Below are positions 2,086-20,452 of a DNA stretch of 24,973 nt, piece by piece. The DNA lies in the IMG/VR virus record IMGVR_UViG_2724679239_000007, positions 1-24,973 of that record, one strand, 5' to 3'. Made by a program: the position numbers and the translations under genes. Positions within the stretch are counted from its first letter, which is position 1. Each line of letters opens with the position of its first letter. The stretch comes from a virus (lineage: Duplodnaviria; Heunggongvirae; Uroviricota; Caudoviricetes). The notes under the pieces are model-generated. The model did no database searches. It saw only the letters and a list, made by a program, of their open reading frames with translations, and had not been told where the DNA came from.

Positions 2086-3324
2086 TCAACCATTTACTAT
2101 TCTCAAACCTTTCTTACCACCGGATCTATTAATTACCCCTTTTCTCGCCTCATCAAAAAAATCTCCTACCCATTGCATCATAATTTTGCGTTGTTCTAAA
2201 TAAGTAGTTCTATTATAAATATCTCTTATTTTATCACCACTTTTATGTGCTAATGCAGCCTCAATAACATCAGGGTTAAAACCCTCCTCATTTAAAAGCG
2301 TACTCCACATCGAACGAAAACCGTGTAACGTTACAATCCCTTTGAACTTGCTGGCAGCAATTGGGGTATTGATAGTATTCTTTCCCATAGGAGCATCTTT
2401 TGTTCTGGAGGAAAAAAATATATAACGCCCTCTTTTTATTTTCTGCATTGTTCTTAGGATTCTAATAGCCTGTGATGAGAGAGGCACAACATGTTCACGA
2501 TGGCATTTCATTTTATGCGCGGGGATAATCCACAAGCCAGAATCAAAATCAATCTCGGACCACTCTGCTTTAATCGCCTCACCTGGCCTGACCATTGTCA
2601 ATATCTGGAATAAAAGTGCATTGTGAGCTATTTGATACTTATGAGGCACACTATCCCACCAACTCAGAAATTCAGGCAATCTTTCAACAGGTAGTGCAGC
2701 TAATGATTTATTTTTCTTTCCTGTGAATGCAGTTTTTATCTTAAGTAATGGATTCGTTTTCAATGCTCCACAATTTACAGCGTAATTCATAATTTCATTT
2801 AATCTTGATATTAATTTTTTTTGCAACGCATTCTTATCGGATACGGCATCCAGAGCATTAATAGCTACTGGCGCTGTAATTTTCTCTATGCTGTACTTAC
2901 CAAAGAAAGGAACAAGATATTTGTATACTTCATATTCGATATTATACAGCGTAGGTTTCCGCAATTCCGATCCCTTTTTAAAAGCGATCCATGCATTAGC
3001 AACAGCTTCAAATGTTTGTAGATTTTTTAGTGACATCTCAATTTTACGATTTTTCTTCTCTGTCACTGGATCAACTCCACGTGCAATCATTCGCCGAAGT
3101 TCATCACGTATTTCCCGTGCTTCCGCGAGTGAGAATTCAGGAAAACGCCCTATCGTGTATGTCTGCCGTTTCTTCGTTATCGGATGGCTATAACGGAAAC
3201 GCCACACTTTCCCACCAGCTTTACTCACATTCAGCAATAAACCGAACCCATCATAAACGGCATAGTCCTTTTCACGTGGTTTCATTCCCTTAACTTCAGT
3301 CACGGTTAATGGCTTTACCGGCAT
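2086..3324 (-). CDS. int: P4-type tyrosine integrase (DUF4102 arm-binding N-terminus)
   Basis: 412 aa; N-terminus LTVTEVKGMKPREKDYAVYDGFGLLLNVSKAGGKVWRFRY is typical of the P4 Int family; catalytic region with HGFRSMWST and a C-terminal IRDIYNRTTY tyrosine motif; AT-rich gene. Confidence 0.85.
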   Translation of the reverse strand: MPVKPLTVTEVKGMKPREKDYAVYDGFGLLLNVSKAGGKVWRFRYSHPITKKRQTYTIGRFPEFSLAEAREIRDELRRMIARGVDPVTEKKNRKIEMSLKNLQTFEAVANAWIAFKKGSELRKPTLYNIEYEVYKYLVPFFGKYSIEKITAPVAINALDAVSDKNALQKKLISRLNEIMNYAVNCGALKTNPLLKIKTAFTGKKNKSLAALPVERLPEFLSWWDSVPHKYQIAHNALLFQILTMVRPGEAIKAEWSEIDFDSGLWIIPAHKMKCHREHVVPLSSQAIRILRTMQKIKRGRYIFFSSRTKDAPMGKNTINTPIAASKFKGIVTLHGFRSMWSTLLNEEGFNPDVIEAALAHKSGDKIRDIYNRTTYLEQRKIMMQWVGDFFDEARKGVINRSGGKKGLRIVNG

Positions 3325-9337: not shown

Positions 9338-9412
<75 letters not shown>

Positions 9413-9415
9413 ATA

Positions 9416-9491
<76 letters not shown>

Positions 9492-10984: not shown

Positions 10985-12040
10985 TCATGCTTTCCACTTC
11001 AGGACACCCGAATTTCTCGCGTGCATTAAAAAACGAATCAGCAACAACAGCTGGCTGCCGTGTTTTTCTTCAAAATCTTTTACCCCGGCGTGCAGTTCGT
11101 TATGACATTTACGGCACAGCGGAATAACAAACAAATCATCAGCCTTTGTTTCCATCCCTCCCAGTCCATGACCAATGATGTGATGCGGATCATCTGCCTG
11201 ATTACCGCACGTCATGCATTTCTGCGTTTTTACCCAGCGCGTGTATACAGGCATCTCTTCCCGTTGTGGTTTCTGGCGCTGGAGATACTGAGCCGGTGAC
11301 TCCGGATCAACGGCAATGCTGACCACCGTCTTTTCCTGTGGCGGGTTTTGCTGGTGGGCGTGAGGCAGCGGCGCAAGATTTTTTGTGCGCTGCTTCAGTA
11401 TGCTGGTGGCGGTCTGCTCTCCCGGTACGATGTCGCTTTCACGGTACATTGAGCGGATTTTTTCCGCACGCAACCCCAGCGAACGACGTAATACCGCTTC
11501 CGGTAGCGCGTCCGCCACCTGATTGCGGACCGCCCACCAGGATAATTCAGCCAAAGATAATTCACGCTCCTGCGTACCGCTTATTGCGTGACCGATGACG
11601 TCAATCATCCATGCTGACAGGTTTTGATGAGCAAGTTGCTCGAGTGATTCGGATGTCTGGTCACGCAGCTGGTTGTCGCAGTGCCAGCACAACACCATTG
11701 CGCCGGTACCATAACGGTGAATAACGGTTTCGCTGTGATGATAATCGCCGTGTGGCCACTGGCAGGATTTAATATGGCGCAACAGCCAGTCAGACAATGC
11801 ACCAGCACCACCAGCAGCACGAATTACCCGTGCGTTACTGAAAAACGGCAGCAATGTTTTGTCTTCCACCAGCGGCTGGCGAACGGCAGGAACGACCCCG
11901 GACGGCAGATTACGCATGCTTTTCGGTTCCGGCTCCACCAGTACCCGGGTATTGTGGAATACCGGCATGGATTCACGGCCCGGCTTAACGACCACCAGCC
12001 CGAGTTCCGGTACCAGAACAGGTCGAAGTAATACCCGCAC
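10985..12040 (-). CDS. DUF968-family protein (YdfU-like) with C-terminal HNH-like Cys/His cluster
   Basis: 351 aa; C-terminus CMTCGNQADDPHHIIGHGLGG...CRKCHNELH; typical nin-region neighbour of rusA. Confidence 0.55.
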   Translation of the reverse strand: MRVLLRPVLVPELGLVVVKPGRESMPVFHNTRVLVEPEPKSMRNLPSGVVPAVRQPLVEDKTLLPFFSNARVIRAAGGAGALSDWLLRHIKSCQWPHGDYHHSETVIHRYGTGAMVLCWHCDNQLRDQTSESLEQLAHQNLSAWMIDVIGHAISGTQERELSLAELSWWAVRNQVADALPEAVLRRSLGLRAEKIRSMYRESDIVPGEQTATSILKQRTKNLAPLPHAHQQNPPQEKTVVSIAVDPESPAQYLQRQKPQREEMPVYTRWVKTQKCMTCGNQADDPHHIIGHGLGGMETKADDLFVIPLCRKCHNELHAGVKDFEEKHGSQLLLLIRFLMHARNSGVLKWKA

Positions 12041-12747: not shown

Positions 12748-12786
12748 CGCGTTGAAAATAAAAACAAAAACCCGCCGAAGCGGGTT
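12748..12786 (-). terminator. Rho-independent terminator downstream of hokD
   Basis: On the minus strand AACCCGC-TTCG-GCGGGTT followed by TTTGTTTTTATTTTC. Confidence 0.45.
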
Positions 12787-12854
12787 AAGTGCGGGTGCGT
12801 TGAGGATGCCTGCCACATCAGAGGTGGCGAGGGATTTCTCCCTCGCCGGGTCTC

Positions 12855-13010
12855 TTACTCCTCAGGTTCGTAAGCTGTGAAGACAGCGACCTCCGTCTGG
12901 CCGGTTCGGATTCGTACCTCGCAGAGGTCTTTCCTCGTTACCAGTGCCGTAACAATGACGGTTAAACAGATGACGATCAGGGCGATTAACATCGCCTTTT
13001 GCTGCTTCAT
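12855..13010 (-). CDS. hokD: Hok-family type I toxin (HokD/RelF-like)
   Basis: 51 aa from MKQQKAMLIALIVICLTVIVTALVTRKDLCEVRIRTGQTEVAVFTAYE: single TM plus the conserved Hok C-terminal motif. Confidence 0.85.
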   Translation of the reverse strand: MKQQKAMLIALIVICLTVIVTALVTRKDLCEVRIRTGQTEVAVFTAYEPEE

Positions 13011-13045
13011 AGCCTGCTTCTCCTGTGTAAGTTCACAGAGATATT

Positions 13046-14110
13046 GCAATTGCCTCAGGATAAGTAAGGGGAAATTGCACTATGCAAATGCAGCATCTGA
13101 TGGTTGGCTATCCTAAGTACTACCAAACGGCCGATTATGCGTTGAGGCTTTCAGTGATGGCTGATACAGCAACAATGAGAATGAAGGCTCTGCACTTCTG
13201 GGATAAACACGGTATTTCTGCGGCTTCTGAAGCCTTTGGCGTGTCCTGCCGCACGCTTTACTGGTGGCGTCAGTTACTGAACAAGGAAGGACCTGAGGGG
13301 CTAATCCCGCACAGTAAGGCACCTCTGGTGCGACGAAAAAAACACTGGCATCCCGATGTGCTGAAAGAGATTCGACGCCTCAGGACAGAGCTGCCGAACC
13401 TCGGTAAAGAGCAGATTTTTGTTCGCCTGAAGCCCTGGTGCGAACAGCGCTATCTGGCCTGTCCGAGTGTTTCCACCATCGGCAGAATGATCGCTGCCGC
13501 ACATGATAAAATGCGGATGATACCTGTGCGTCTGGGATCGCGGGGGAAGGCACTGCTTGTCAAAAAGCGGTCTGCCAAACCCCGCAGGCCAAAGCACTAT
13601 CGCCCGGTAAAGACAGGTGAGCTCATTGGGATGGACGCCATTGAGCTCAGAATGGGCGAACTGCGTCGCTATGTCATCACCATGATCGACGAATGCAGCA
13701 ATTACGCGCTGGCGCTGGCTGTGCCGTCACTCAACAGTGATATCGTCAATCACTTCTTCAGCCGCGCAGCCCGGTTGTTCCCGGTCGGTATCAGCCAGAT
13801 AATCACAGATAACGGAAAAGAGTTCCTGGGAAACTTCGACAAAACGCTGCAGGAAGCCGCTATCAAACACCTCTGGACCTATCCCTACACGCCAAAAATG
13901 AACGCTATCTGTGAACGTTTTAACCGGACGTTAAGAGAGCAGTTTATTGAATTTAATGAGATTTTACTCTTTGAAGATCTGGCGCTATTTAATCAGAAGC
14001 TGGCGGAATATCTGGTGCTGTATAACAGCAAAAGGCCCCATAAGGCGCTCGCGCTAATGACACCCGTGGAATATATTTTAAGAGAGAACAAAAATTGCAA
14101 TATGTGGTGG
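13046..14110 (+). mobile_element. Putative insertion sequence carrying a single-ORF DDE (rve) transposase, IS481-like; boundaries approximate
   Basis: Transposase gene plus short inverted ATATTGCAATT motifs at about 13051 and 14098; boundaries and target duplication not resolved by eye. Confidence 0.35.
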
Positions 14111-14278
14111 ACCCATACATCTCCTTGCCTTTCGGCACGTAAGAGGCTAATCTTCAGTTGTCGAGACATAAGACTGGCCTCACTTCGATTTATAGTCGGG
14201 TGGGGCTTTTCTCTATCTGCCTTTTGGTGTTCATGCCTGAGACAGATAGCCTCAAGCACCCGCAGCAATTCTACTTAA
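13082..14278 (+). CDS. DDE-type transposase (N-terminal HTH plus rve integrase core), IS481-family-like
   Basis: HTH region HFWDKHGISAASEAFGVSCRTLYWWRQ; catalytic D (GMDAIE), D (TDNGKEF) and E (ICERFNRTL) with about 58 and 35 aa spacing; the C-terminal tail beyond about residue 340 looks like read-through into flanking DNA. Confidence 0.7.
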   Translation: MQMQHLMVGYPKYYQTADYALRLSVMADTATMRMKALHFWDKHGISAASEAFGVSCRTLYWWRQLLNKEGPEGLIPHSKAPLVRRKKHWHPDVLKEIRRLRTELPNLGKEQIFVRLKPWCEQRYLACPSVSTIGRMIAAAHDKMRMIPVRLGSRGKALLVKKRSAKPRRPKHYRPVKTGELIGMDAIELRMGELRRYVITMIDECSNYALALAVPSLNSDIVNHFFSRAARLFPVGISQIITDNGKEFLGNFDKTLQEAAIKHLWTYPYTPKMNAICERFNRTLREQFIEFNEILLFEDLALFNQKLAEYLVLYNSKRPHKALALMTPVEYILRENKNCNMWWTHTSPCLSARKRLIFSCRDIRLASLRFIVGWGFSLSAFWCSCLRQIASSTRSNST

Positions 14279-14302
14279 CTATCCTTTTCCCGCAAATCGT
14301 TT

Positions 14303-14386
14303 TTATCCCCAGCGACAAATCGAATACACCACCAGCGCCACCGCCATTGCAATTCCCATCGTTGCGAATGCTTCAGGCCAGGTCAT
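14303..14386 (-). CDS. Candidate 27-aa hydrophobic peptide translationally coupled to the upstream 187-aa ORF
   Basis: MTWPEAFATMGIAMAVALVVYSICRWG; ATG overlaps the TGA of the 187-aa gene (ATGA) and has GGAGGA about 10 nt upstream; below the ORF-track size cutoff; coordinates may be off by 1. Confidence 0.3.
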   Translation of the reverse strand: MTWPEAFATMGIAMAVALVVYSICRWG

Positions 14387-14946
14387 CGCAAAACATCCTC
14401 CGCACTTATCAGTTCGTTCCGCTTCAGGTAGTCCATCGCCTTCTCCGGTAATTTGCGGTCTGGATTAGCTTTTTTCAGTTGACTGACCAGTCGTTTAACC
14501 CACATTGTTAATTCGCTAACCCGACTACTGGATGCTAGTAGGTTGTCGGCTTTACCCAGAATGACAGCACAGCAAGCCTCTTTGAGTACCCAGTCAACAG
14601 CGTCTTTCCATGCTCCGGTTTCGACTGGCGGATTTTCACGCTTAACCTGTTCATAGAAACGCACTGCTTTAATCAATCCTTCTGGTGTCAGTGGCACAGG
14701 TGTAGCGGTGAATAGAGGTTTAGGTGTTATCTCTGCACGTTTTGCGTATGCTTCAACTGTGTCAGGATTAAACAGGATTATGTTTTCGCCGTATTCCCAC
14801 GCTATCGGCTCTGCTTCCAGCGATGCCAGAGCAATTTTGAATAACTCACCCTCTACTCGTGCCACCCCTGAATTGGGGTGGCATTTCGCAATCGCTATTT
14901 TTAATTTAGCTTCTTCGATTAATTGCTCTTTTGTTAATTCAGTCAT
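14383..14946 (-). CDS. Hypothetical protein (187 aa), unassigned nin-region cargo
   Basis: ATG start; clean ORF with an AT-rich upstream spacer (about 14950-15100) that could hold its own promoter; no family recognised. Confidence 0.45.
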   Translation of the reverse strand: MTELTKEQLIEEAKLKIAIAKCHPNSGVARVEGELFKIALASLEAEPIAWEYGENIILFNPDTVEAYAKRAEITPKPLFTATPVPLTPEGLIKAVRFYEQVKRENPPVETGAWKDAVDWVLKEACCAVILGKADNLLASSSRVSELTMWVKRLVSQLKKANPDRKLPEKAMDYLKRNELISAEDVLR

Positions 14947-15104
14947 TTTTCATTACCGCCCTTTCGGGCGGCCTCCTGATGTTTTGAGGGTGCAGGAATC
15001 CCTCCTGTTAAGGATTAAATTTTATTTACAGTGCTGAGATTAATTATTCAGATTTGAATTATGTTTTCTCTTTCACTTCACGCAGTCCTGATTGTTAATT
15101 TGGC

Positions 15105-15521
15105 TCACAGTACCACCTCCTGCAAACTTCCCTTCCAGAAAGCCAGCACGCGCTGCATAGTTTCGCTCTGACGGCACTCTCGGCAAATTATGTTCTGTCT
15201 CCTGTTGTAACGGCGTATTTCACCATCTGGCAATGAATAAATCAGGTCAGGGTCGCTCTTCTTTTTCACTGCCGCTCTCGACATTTTTTTGCAGGCTTTT
15301 ATCCAGTCCTTACGAGCCTGCTCCGAAGGAAATATTCCATGTCCTGAACCATATACTGCGCCACTAACTACCAGCTCTTTCGCCAGAACTTCTATCAGGT
15401 GCCTCGTTGCTCCGGTTTCATCCTCCAGTTGCTTACGTGTTTTCCTCCCATCTCTGCGCACCAGTTCCACAATACGCGCCTTCAGTTGCTCCCGATATTC
15501 AGGTGTAAAAACGTTTCTCAT
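15105..15521 (-). CDS. Hypothetical phage protein (about 138 aa from MRNVFTPEY)
   Basis: ORF immediately downstream of the DUF1627-like gene; basic C-terminal region; no family recognised. Confidence 0.4.
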   Translation of the reverse strand: MRNVFTPEYREQLKARIVELVRRDGRKTRKQLEDETGATRHLIEVLAKELVVSGAVYGSGHGIFPSEQARKDWIKACKKMSRAAVKKKSDPDLIYSLPDGEIRRYNRRQNIICRECRQSETMQRVLAFWKGSLQEVVL

Positions 15522-15528
15522 AAGTGCC

Positions 15529-16290
15529 TCACCTTTCCGACACAACGCGACTGGAGGAATCGACAATCTGTCGGACAATATCCCGGTGTTTATTCAGCTC
15601 CCGCAGCGCGGCGCAGACGCGCTCCCACTTCTGGACATGATTTTTCGCCCGGCGCAGTTCGCAGTTTGCCAAATGCAGCGATGGTAAAATCAGGTCATCC
15701 GCCCGCGTTTCGGTGAACGATGGCAACGACTGCACAATGTCCGCCACAGTTTCTGTTTTAATTTCTTCCTGTGTTACAGTTTCCTGTGCTGGTAACGCAA
15801 CACCTGCTGGCTGAGGAAAGGCTTTACCATCAGTTTCCGTTACCAATGCGGCTTTCGGCTCTGCTGGTAAATTATCGTCCGGCATGCAGTAACGAAATTT
15901 ACCGTTCTGATTTACGCGAATCAGGCGACCTTTGCTGATTGCCTGAGCCAGCGTTGAAGCCACTTTGCGTGATGTGATACCGAACAGCGTAGCCAGCTCA
16001 TCCGCCGTTTGTGGTCCGCGTTGTTCAATCGTCGCGGTTAAATCGCACTCTGAGATTTTCGCTACTGTTGCTGTGGTGGTTTCTTCCGGCAGTTCTGCCT
16101 GCGCTGGCTGTTCCTGCTGAACGTTGTTATCAGCCACACGCCAGGTGTACGCGCTTTTATCAACAAAACCAGCCTTTTTCAGTTCCCATAGTTCGTTAAG
16201 CACTTCTTCACGACTGACATCAAGTCGCGCAGCAAGTTCTATGGATGTGGCTTTTCCCATTGCTTTCAGTGCGTCAAAAACAGTCTCCAT
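15529..16290 (-). CDS. DUF1627-like prophage protein with winged-helix-like segments
   Basis: 253 aa; N-terminal [43 protein letters not shown] and a second similar segment ([28 protein letters not shown]); typical position after the helicase loader gene. Confidence 0.45.
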
Positions 16291-16313: not shown

Positions 16314-17060
16314 TTACTTCGTGATTCCTGGCTGGACGACATTCTGGCGCCAGCTTTCCCAGTTAAAAGTCACCCAGCGCCCGCCGTTCATGGTCATGCG
16401 ATCCATAATCCTCTCGCCGAGCAACGTTTTCATGGCCTCATAGTTCAGGTTTGTCAGCATCCCCATACTGCGCATCGATGCTGTCCGGCGATCAACAATC
16501 TGATGCAGCACCACCTGCTCGTTTTTCGTCTCACGCTGAATGCCAATTTCATCAAGAACCAGCAGATCCACTTCGCACAGTTCCCGCAAAAATTTTTCGC
16601 CTGACTGCCCGTCGTCATAGCTGGCGTGCAGGGCACTCATAACATCAGCCACAGTAACCACTATCACTGTCTGGCCGTCTTTCAGCAGGCGATTCCCGAT
16701 AGCCGCCGCCAGATGGTTTTTTCCGGTACCAGGTTTTCCACTGAACGCGAAATTTGTACACCCGGTCATCAGTTCATCGGCGATGGATTTTGCCTGGCTT
16801 AACGCGTATCGCTGACCGTCGTTCTGCACCTGGTAATTCGCAAACGAACATTTGCGGTGCAACGGCTGGATGCCTGAGCGATTCAGAATTTTTTCCACCC
16901 GCAACTGACGATTCAGGCGGTTGATCTCCTCGCTACGTTTCTGGCCTTCGGCAAGCTGCCACTCGCGCCACTCCGCCACCGTTCTGTATGGAGCGGTTAC
17001 ATGTGGCGGGGTCAGTCTGCGGAGGCGTTCCAGAACACCACCTGTCGCAATATTTTTCAC
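16314..17060 (-). CDS. DnaC-like helicase loader / IstB-like AAA+ ATPase (replication protein)
   Basis: 248 aa; Walker [16 protein letters not shown] and Walker B LLVLDEIG; downstream of the O-like initiator. Confidence 0.8.
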
Positions 17061-20396: not shown

Positions 20397-20452
20397 TTTC
20401 TGGTGACGTTTGGCGGTATCAGTTTTACTCCGTGACTGCTCTGCCGCCCTTT
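20397..20452 (+). ncRNA. dicF: DicF small RNA (ftsZ-targeting antisense sRNA)
   Basis: TTTCTGGTGACGTTTGGCGGTATCAGTTTTACTCCGTGACTGCTCTGCCGCCCTTTTT matches my recollection of DicF, including the terminator hairpin GGCGG...CCGCC plus T-run; sits just upstream of dicB. Confidence 0.7.

Follow-up and report, generated by a model that had tools for sequence, protein, structure and literature searches.

Enterobacteria encode a number of small regulators with a single transmembrane segment, such as AcrZ, KdpF, CydX/AppX, MgtS and PmrR, which are 20-50 residues long, contain a single hydrophobic helix and have short, conserved ends. Small proteins of the AcrZ/KdpF type frequently escape annotation, and most of them work by attaching to a larger protein of the membrane. 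Here we consider a peptide of 27 amino acids (aa), encoded by a short open reading frame (ORF) that overlaps the end of a 187-aa gene in a stretch of viral DNA of 24,973 nucleotides (nt), the IMG/VR record IMGVR_UViG_2724679239_000007 (Caudoviricetes), hereafter called the window. We propose that this ORF is probably a genuine, routinely unannotated gene for a single-pass inner-membrane micro-protein, which forms a self-contained mosaic module and is coupled to variable upstream genes. It constitutes a new and uncharacterised family of a known kind, that of small membrane proteins missed by annotation, and not a new type of system. Similarly to the proteins of the AcrZ/KdpF type, the peptide possesses small residues in a spacing that is typical of helix-packing faces (G11-x3-A15 and A13-x3-A17). 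It differs from them in having no sequence similarity to them, the best NCBIfam match being KdpF with an E-value of 0.029 and 14 bits against a cut-off of 27, and also in that it is phage-borne, lacks a promoter of its own and is coupled by an overlap to an upstream gene that varies. The anatomy described in the original prediction, comprising the 187-aa ORF, the 27-aa hydrophobic ORF, the ATGA overlap between them, an embedded GGAGGA and an upstream spacer, is present in all its elements on the minus strand:

14303..14386, minus strand: 27-aa peptide ORF, encoding MTWPEAFATMGIAMAVALVVYSICRWG (ORF reading, homologues)
14383..14946, minus strand: 187-aa gene (ORF reading)
14383..14386, minus strand: ATGA overlap, which combines the ATG of the peptide gene with the TGA stop of the 187-aa gene (sequence, homologues)
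14396..14401, minus strand: GGAGGA, Shine-Dalgarno (SD) sequence of the peptide, within the last codons of the 187-aa gene
14947..15104, minus strand: spacer 5' of the 187-aa gene, 158 nt, 39% GC

The conservation of the peptide ORF is the most informative aspect of the locus. An exact-pattern scan of IMG/VR fetched 119 loci which, together with phage 933W and strain S163-2, provided 121 copies. The encoded peptide has exactly 27 residues in 114 of these; the remainder consists of two in-frame variants of 25 residues, three read-throughs of the stop codon and two truncated copies. Across 70 distinct segments of 324 nt, the commonest base mostly reaches a frequency of 0.9-1.0 between position -13, at the SD, and the end of the stop codon, dipping at third codon positions, whereas outside this block it falls to 0.3-0.7 from the first base past the stop and to 0.3-0.8 upstream. 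Since conservation is confined to the interval from -13 to the stop codon, the conserved unit corresponds exactly to the SD and the ORF. A second, degenerate pattern added diverged copies and gave a wider set. The first pattern fixed codons 1-7, and the second fixed the ATG and parts of codons 3-6, 21-22 and 25-26; the statistics were therefore restricted to codons 8-27 in the first set and to codons 8-20 in the wider set, pattern-fixed positions being uninformative. The ratio of nonsynonymous to synonymous polymorphism (pN/pS) was 0.33 in the peptide frame of the first set, against 1.42 and 1.33 in the other two frames of the same strand. The corresponding values in the wider set (53 distinct DNAs, 27 peptides) were 0.44 against 1.05 and 1.64, with an entropy at codon positions 1, 2 and 3 of 4.7, 3.7 and 9.6, the third position being about twice as variable as the first and second. 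A comparable pattern is found between the window copy and that of the virulent phage Av-05, with 5 differences at first, 2 at second and 13 at third codon positions. The variants of BP-4795 and PhiR12_1, with an amino acid identity of 59-63%, still comprise 27 codons and have kept the hydrophobic core, the M-x-W-P-[ED]-A start and the Y-S-x-[CF]-R-W-G end. Within the core, G11, A13 and A15 are invariant in eight representative variants and A17 is found in seven of the eight, the family consensus being MxWP[E/D]AF-(hydrophobic, small-xxx-small)-YS[I/L/V]CRWG. The N-terminus of the peptide is acidic, residues 7-23 form its hydrophobic core (mean Kyte-Doolittle hydropathy 2.1) and R25 is located near the C-terminus, a layout from which a single-pass membrane micro-protein is predicted. 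The original prediction had named frameshifts or stops in homologues as evidence that would speak against the peptide; the frame has proved to be conserved across homologous prophages, and this mode of variation indicates that the ORF is very likely a real gene.

Several points weigh against this interpretation. Part of the ORF was fixed by the search patterns, and conservation there carries no information. The pN/pS values of 0.33-0.44 are no more than moderate, and close relationship among the sequences is common. An equally low ratio (0.29) is obtained for the antisense frame whose wobble position coincides with that of the peptide frame, as the geometry of the two frames predicts. The peptide was not found in the supplements of three ribosome profiling (Ribo-seq) studies of enterohaemorrhagic Escherichia coli (EHEC), and its membrane topology, its target and the timing of its expression are all features that we infer. 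Coding in the wobble-sharing antisense frame was rejected solely because the window has no ORF with a start codon there. A 97-aa ORF on the plus strand (14158..14451) was likewise rejected as coding, with a pN/pS of 1.37 in its frame, and is probably spurious. Long open frames run antisense to the peptide and its upstream gene, and ORF-38 of Stx2 phage I (636..1385 of the examined locus) is an annotated coding sequence (CDS) in an old record.

It could also be hypothesised that the 98-nt block formed by the SD and the ORF is conserved as nucleic acid, for instance as a linker for recombination at module boundaries or as an operon-terminal RNA element, and that the peptide frame is incidental. 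The block is short, its internal nucleotide conservation is high and mosaic junctions are located exactly at both of its ends, or exactly after the ATGA in loci that do not carry it, all of which would be consistent with such a role. However, variation is concentrated in third codon positions, and the peptide frame is the only one of the same-strand frames with a reduced pN/pS. Copies that have diverged by about 25-35% in nucleotide sequence have lost neither their start nor their stop codon, and still show the length of 27 codons, the two end motifs and the hydrophobicity. The observed deletions are in frame, and there is no Rfam match over the peptide ORF. We therefore consider conservation as nucleic acid to be improbable, and return to the ORF as a protein-coding module.

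The overlap with the upstream gene takes the form ATGA (or TGATG), ATGA being present in 122 of 122 and in 144 of 144 loci in the two sets examined. Residue 2 of the peptide is T, S or N, whose codons all begin with A, and the upstream TGA is thus preserved. A purine-rich, SD-like motif is located 7-9 nt upstream of the ATG in every type of upstream tail seen; the distance from the GGAGGA to the ATG is 9 nt in the window. The overlap and the embedded SD are thus universal among the loci examined, which fits the translational coupling named in the original prediction, and we suggest that the peptide is translated in this way. A promoter search revealed no promoter-like site at the peptide ORF on either strand. 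The locus thereby resembles the gene pairs coupled through ATGA by termination-reinitiation, sharing with them the 4-nt stop/start overlap and an SD placed in the upstream CDS in every copy. It is unlike them in one respect, since the usual pairs are functional partners that stay together, whereas the peptide cistron is portable and is found behind many unrelated upstream genes.

The module comprises about 13 nt with the SD and the 84-nt ORF, is devoid of its own promoter and occurs in temperate as well as in virulent phages. The ATGA (or TGATG) overlap always joins it to whichever gene closes a block of early accessory genes of the Ea22, DUF551 or 'ea' type. Ribosomes that end translation of the upstream gene would most likely re-initiate on the peptide ORF, so that translation of any gene in this position would also yield the peptide. 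In the window this upstream gene is that of the 187-aa protein, in the rightward early operon and after the replication genes. The peptide would form a single helix in the inner membrane with its acidic N-terminus outside and its C-terminus, with R25, inside, as suggested by the positive-inside rule. It may act early in lytic development by binding a membrane protein through the face of its helix that carries the small residues, much as AcrZ or KdpF do with their partners.

The relation of the peptide to its neighbours is that of a free-standing module. Upstream of it are found 75 different ORFs in 42 clusters, including unrelated types such as DUF551 and Ea22-type genes, with at least four unrelated C-terminal tails. 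The type found in the window is ...KAMDYLKRNGLISxEDxLR, and others are those of DUF551 proteins (...HWMPLPEPPQEVNQ), of L0139 of 933W (...NDLKNIEQEVNR) and of Av-05 (...GWNACRAAMLKKKGMNQ). The commonest peptide variant is found behind each of the three common tail types, and all of the downstream contexts are represented among these combinations. A reverse sample of 80 loci was collected by similarity to the 187-aa protein; it is redundant and the proportions drawn from it are rough. The C-terminal tail of the 187-aa protein is carried by 72 of these loci and is followed by the peptide in 25 of the 72. In the other 47 (about 65%), which lack the peptide, similarity stops exactly after ATGA or GTGA, so that the 4-nt overlap marks a mosaic junction. 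On the 3' side, the peptide is followed by the hok/sok locus, by a terminator hairpin or by another gene, for instance the DUF4222 gene of BP-4795. Since the same peptide stands behind many unrelated upstream genes and the C-terminal module often occurs without it, the peptide is not a dedicated partner of the 187-aa protein, and on sequence grounds the link between the two is positional and not specific.

This bears directly on the idea, put forward in the original prediction, that the two genes form a dedicated module of toxin or phage exclusion, in which a membrane toxin with a soluble partner would kill the cell or exclude phages. The peptide is tiny and hydrophobic like the type I toxins (Hok, IbsC, ShoB, DinQ, TisB), it is tightly coupled to the upstream gene and, in the window, it adjoins a real toxin locus, hok/sok. 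Unlike the type I toxins, it is embedded in an operon, bears no similarity to PF01848 and has no independent promoter, long structured leader or conserved antisense RNA; a conserved leader or antisense RNA is not seen because conservation is confined to the SD and the ORF. A dedicated pair is difficult to reconcile with the 42 upstream clusters and their unrelated tails, or with the 47 loci in which the tail is found alone, and neither the 187-aa protein nor the peptide matches any PADLOC defence model (E <= 0.1). The peptide is also located in early lytic operons and in strictly virulent phages of the genus Avunavirus, which, together with the lack of its own promoter and antisense RNA, fits an accessory gene of the lytic cycle better than an exclusion gene expressed from a prophage. 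The idea of toxicity or exclusion has no support so far, as nothing in the sequences shows the peptide to be a toxin, and a dedicated toxin pair appears decidedly improbable.

With regard to the upstream gene of the window, its 187-aa product belongs to PHROG 660, a family that carries no known function and whose profile it matches over the full length (E 1.4e-75; residues 1-187 aligned to positions 3-193 of the 193 in the profile), and is 96% identical to an existing cluster of 187 aa. There is no Pfam family at E <= 0.1, including PF13935 and PF04448, and no NCBIfam match. The view that the protein belongs to no recognisable family is thus correct for Pfam and NCBIfam, but has to be abandoned for PHROG. 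An exhaustive HMMER search of 1.84 billion representatives returned only 493 clusters, all of which are segment-wise mosaics, and no informative relative. The alignment and this search delineate four exchangeable segments, at about residues 1-50, 48-94, 79-131 and 124-187, which are joined elsewhere to Ead_Ea22 (PF13935) or DUF551 (PF04448) domains. The AlphaFold2 model, built from 32 sequences, is poor (pLDDT 58.7, pTM 0.39); a Foldseek search with it against BFVD and the PDB gave nothing at E <= 0.001, and PDB sequences searched with a profile yielded no more than a match to DnaI below significance (E 0.18). The 187-aa protein can thus be described only as a mosaic accessory protein, helical in nature, from the Ea22/DUF551 gene pool. 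It is comparable to the products of the exo-xis or 'ea' genes of lambdoid and Shiga toxin (Stx) phages in that it has exchangeable segments in common with proteins bearing Ead_Ea22 or DUF551 domains, and its neighbours in related phages are Ea22, EaA and DUF551 genes. It differs from them by its position, the block of the window being situated in the rightward operon between replication and nin-like genes and not between exo and xis. The mosaic variability of the C-terminus of Ea22 described in Stx phages is the same as that seen here for the 187-aa protein, and the 27-aa ORF is not mentioned in that work (PMC10834534).

The distribution of the peptide was evaluated from phage, plasmid and protein collections, and from complete E. 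coli genomes. The 98-nt stretch is present in 1631 of 5426 complete E. coli genomes (about 30%), at 3098 places and with up to seven copies per genome. It was also found in 93 phage records, including 933W and other Stx phages, BP-4795 and the virulent Avunavirus phages Av-05 and 24-2-1, and in 181 plasmids, of which 155 are from Escherichia, 25 from Salmonella and one from Klebsiella. These plasmids are mostly non-mobilizable and of about 90-100 kb, and we take them to be phage-plasmids because of their size and their DUF551 and eaa neighbours. No homologue of the peptide was found in the ea22-ea8.5 gap of phage lambda or, after yfdS (DUF551), in the CPS-53 prophage of K-12. The record PP818812.1, named Actinobacillus phage vB_Apl-pPE4, contains Ea22-type genes resembling those of E. 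coli, together with this region, at an identity of about 90%, and its host attribution looks odd.

Despite this abundance, the peptide is hardly represented in annotation. The records of 933W, Stx2 phage I, BP-4795, PhiR12_1, Av-05 and 24-2-1, and that of E. coli PEC422 annotated by PGAP, leave a gap of about 80 nt without annotation, into which the ORF fits exactly. It occurs sporadically in the protein collection, as 'hypothetical protein', as 'bacteriophage protein' or, whole or in fragments, mislabelled as 'DUF551 domain-containing protein, partial', and a search with the 44-aa read-through variant as query returned just such sporadic entries. Clustering at 90% groups the peptide with an unrelated DUF551 protein of 121 aa. 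The peptide has no family match in Pfam, NCBIfam, PHROG or PADLOC, and its sequence was not found in the literature. Gene callers may skip it because, with 84 nt including the stop, the ORF is very short.

Downstream of the peptide ORF, the window carries a hok/sok locus that has been interrupted by an insertion sequence (IS):

14268..14295, minus strand: putative hok promoter, TTGCGG-16 nt-TAGAAT (read from the sequence and from the start of the Rfam match at 14261)
14120..14261, minus strand: 5' leader of the hok mRNA and sok antisense region (Rfam RF01794, 117 bits, match 14261..14114)
13025..14119, plus strand: IS481-family element of 1095 bp, whose 6-bp target duplication, AGGAGA, is the hok SD
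12855..13010, minus strand: hok (HokD-like) CDS, 51 aa (PF01848, 2.7e-23)

The original prediction had placed the 187-aa gene between the IS and the replication and nin genes. This has to be amended, as the IS does not border an empty gap but is inserted in the SD of hok/sok. By this insertion the hok promoter, the mok start and sok are cut from the hok CDS, and the hok/sok leader and the Hok CDS are not one transcription unit in the window, the IS lying between them. The locus is uninterrupted in E. coli PEC422, and 933W exhibits an identical arrangement of the peptide ORF beside the annotated mokW/hokW/sokW. Chromosomal hok loci inactivated by an IS are known in K-12. The transposase frame of the IS481-family element (13082..14278, plus strand) has no stop within the element and ends 159 nt past the end of the IS (14119), in the hok leader; the C-terminus of the protein therefore depends on the insertion site. 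An isrK-like Rfam match below threshold (25.7 bits, cut-off 50) at 12765..12846 on the minus strand ends in a strong terminator hairpin just after hok, and is probably just the 3' end of the hok mRNA with its terminator.

This proximity raises the question of whether the peptide ORF could be part of hok/sok, as an upstream frame that would control access to the hok promoter or the folding of the hok mRNA. In the window and in 933W the stop codon of the peptide is 8 nt before the -35 hexamer of hok, and hok lies just downstream in about half of the first locus set. Nevertheless, the promoter belongs to the hok/sok module and not to the peptide gene; conservation ends at the stop codon of the peptide, and the Rfam match to hok/sok begins 42 nt further downstream. 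No hok was found within 600 nt downstream in 55 of 112 informative loci, which have a terminator hairpin or another gene instead, and many hok loci do not carry the peptide ORF. Moreover, the ORF is intact in the window although the IS disconnects hok. Given this variable downstream context, the peptide is not considered part of hok/sok, a reading that we regard as very improbable. It is hardly credible that ribosomes reach the 27 codons by a -1 shift of frame where the upstream gene ends, which would provide a fraction of the upstream protein with a C-terminal membrane anchor: the peptide frame is indeed -1 relative to the upstream frame, and a shift at the last sense codon would read ATG ACC TGG, but no slippery heptamer (X XXY YYZ) precedes the overlap in the tail types GAATCAATGA, TTTTGCGATGA and GAAATGATGA, and the conserved ATG with an SD-like motif at the proper distance bears the marks of initiation. 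Programmed frameshifting was consequently rejected, no slippery site being found in any tail type.

On the other side of the 187-aa gene, the original prediction had pointed to an AT-rich spacer of about 150 bp. The spacer is indeed poorer in GC than the window as a whole (39% against 48%), but it is not merely AT-rich, as about 105 nt of it (14947..15051, minus strand) form a conserved leader that travels with the N-terminal module of the 187-aa gene. The leader is kept, whichever gene is located upstream, wherever the N-terminal module is not directly abutted by another gene. Two elements can be distinguished within it:

14972..14977, minus strand: AGGAGG
14955..14972, minus strand: hairpin GCCGCCC-GAAA-GGGCGGT, between the AGGAGG and the start codon of the 187-aa gene

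The hairpin is followed by AATGAAAA-ATG, the start codon being 8 nt past it. Its seven pairs are retained in most sequences, with one-sided changes only, and no compensatory change was found in the spacer hairpins among 10 sequences; an RNA structure is therefore not demonstrated. The z-score of the leader fold is -2.0, and no Rfam family matches the leader. A CCCTC stretch in the leader could pair with either of two GGAGG motifs. A promoter on the minus strand was sought in the AT-rich spacer and none was found, and we read the spacer as an intercistronic leader, in which the hairpin may shorten the effective distance between the SD and the ATG of the 187-aa gene. Such an arrangement resembles that of genes 38 and 25 of phage T4.

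The gene order and the family matches around the locus are those of the early-right operon of a lambdoid prophage. A cI-like repressor gene on the plus strand is followed by cro-like and YdaT-like genes, an O-like gene, a DnaC-like gene (16314..17060), a DUF1627 gene (15529..16290), a DUF977 gene (15105..15578), the 187-aa gene and the peptide ORF; hok/sok, two small ORFs and a DUF968 gene (10985..12040) complete the operon. The gene order is identical in the prophage of PEC422. A full-length DicF antisense RNA (20398..20449, plus strand; RF00039, 76.7 bits) is located beyond the immunity region, as in the Qin prophage of K-12. A tandem pair of tRNA genes identified with Rfam (9341..9491, minus strand) lies downstream of the nin/Q-like region, and the related prophage of PEC422 has tRNA-Ile and tRNA-Arg at the corresponding place.

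The peptide gene is thus carried by nearly a third of complete E. coli genomes, yet it is essentially invisible in annotation and has been given neither a family nor a name, nor a paper. The reference Stx phage 933W carries it, as do other records of Stx-converting phages. Owing to the tight coupling by overlap, knock-outs or truncations of genes of the Ea22 or DUF551 type could be polar on the peptide, and could be misread for this reason. On a wider and distinctly speculative view, to which we give a rather low probability, the peptide would be a portable membrane effector that phages attach to whichever early accessory gene comes last, and an unrecognised cause of some of the phenotypes ascribed to the exo-xis, Ea22 and DUF551 region of Stx phages. 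If this were true, the phenotypes in question would be a bias in the choice between lysis and lysogeny, effects on host physiology, mild membrane toxicity or exclusion, and a deletion or truncation of the upstream gene would abolish translational coupling and thereby silence the peptide. A single base change, from ATGA to ATAA, would remove the peptide and leave the upstream protein unaltered, which makes it a compact and easily testable candidate for a small membrane protein encoded by phages.

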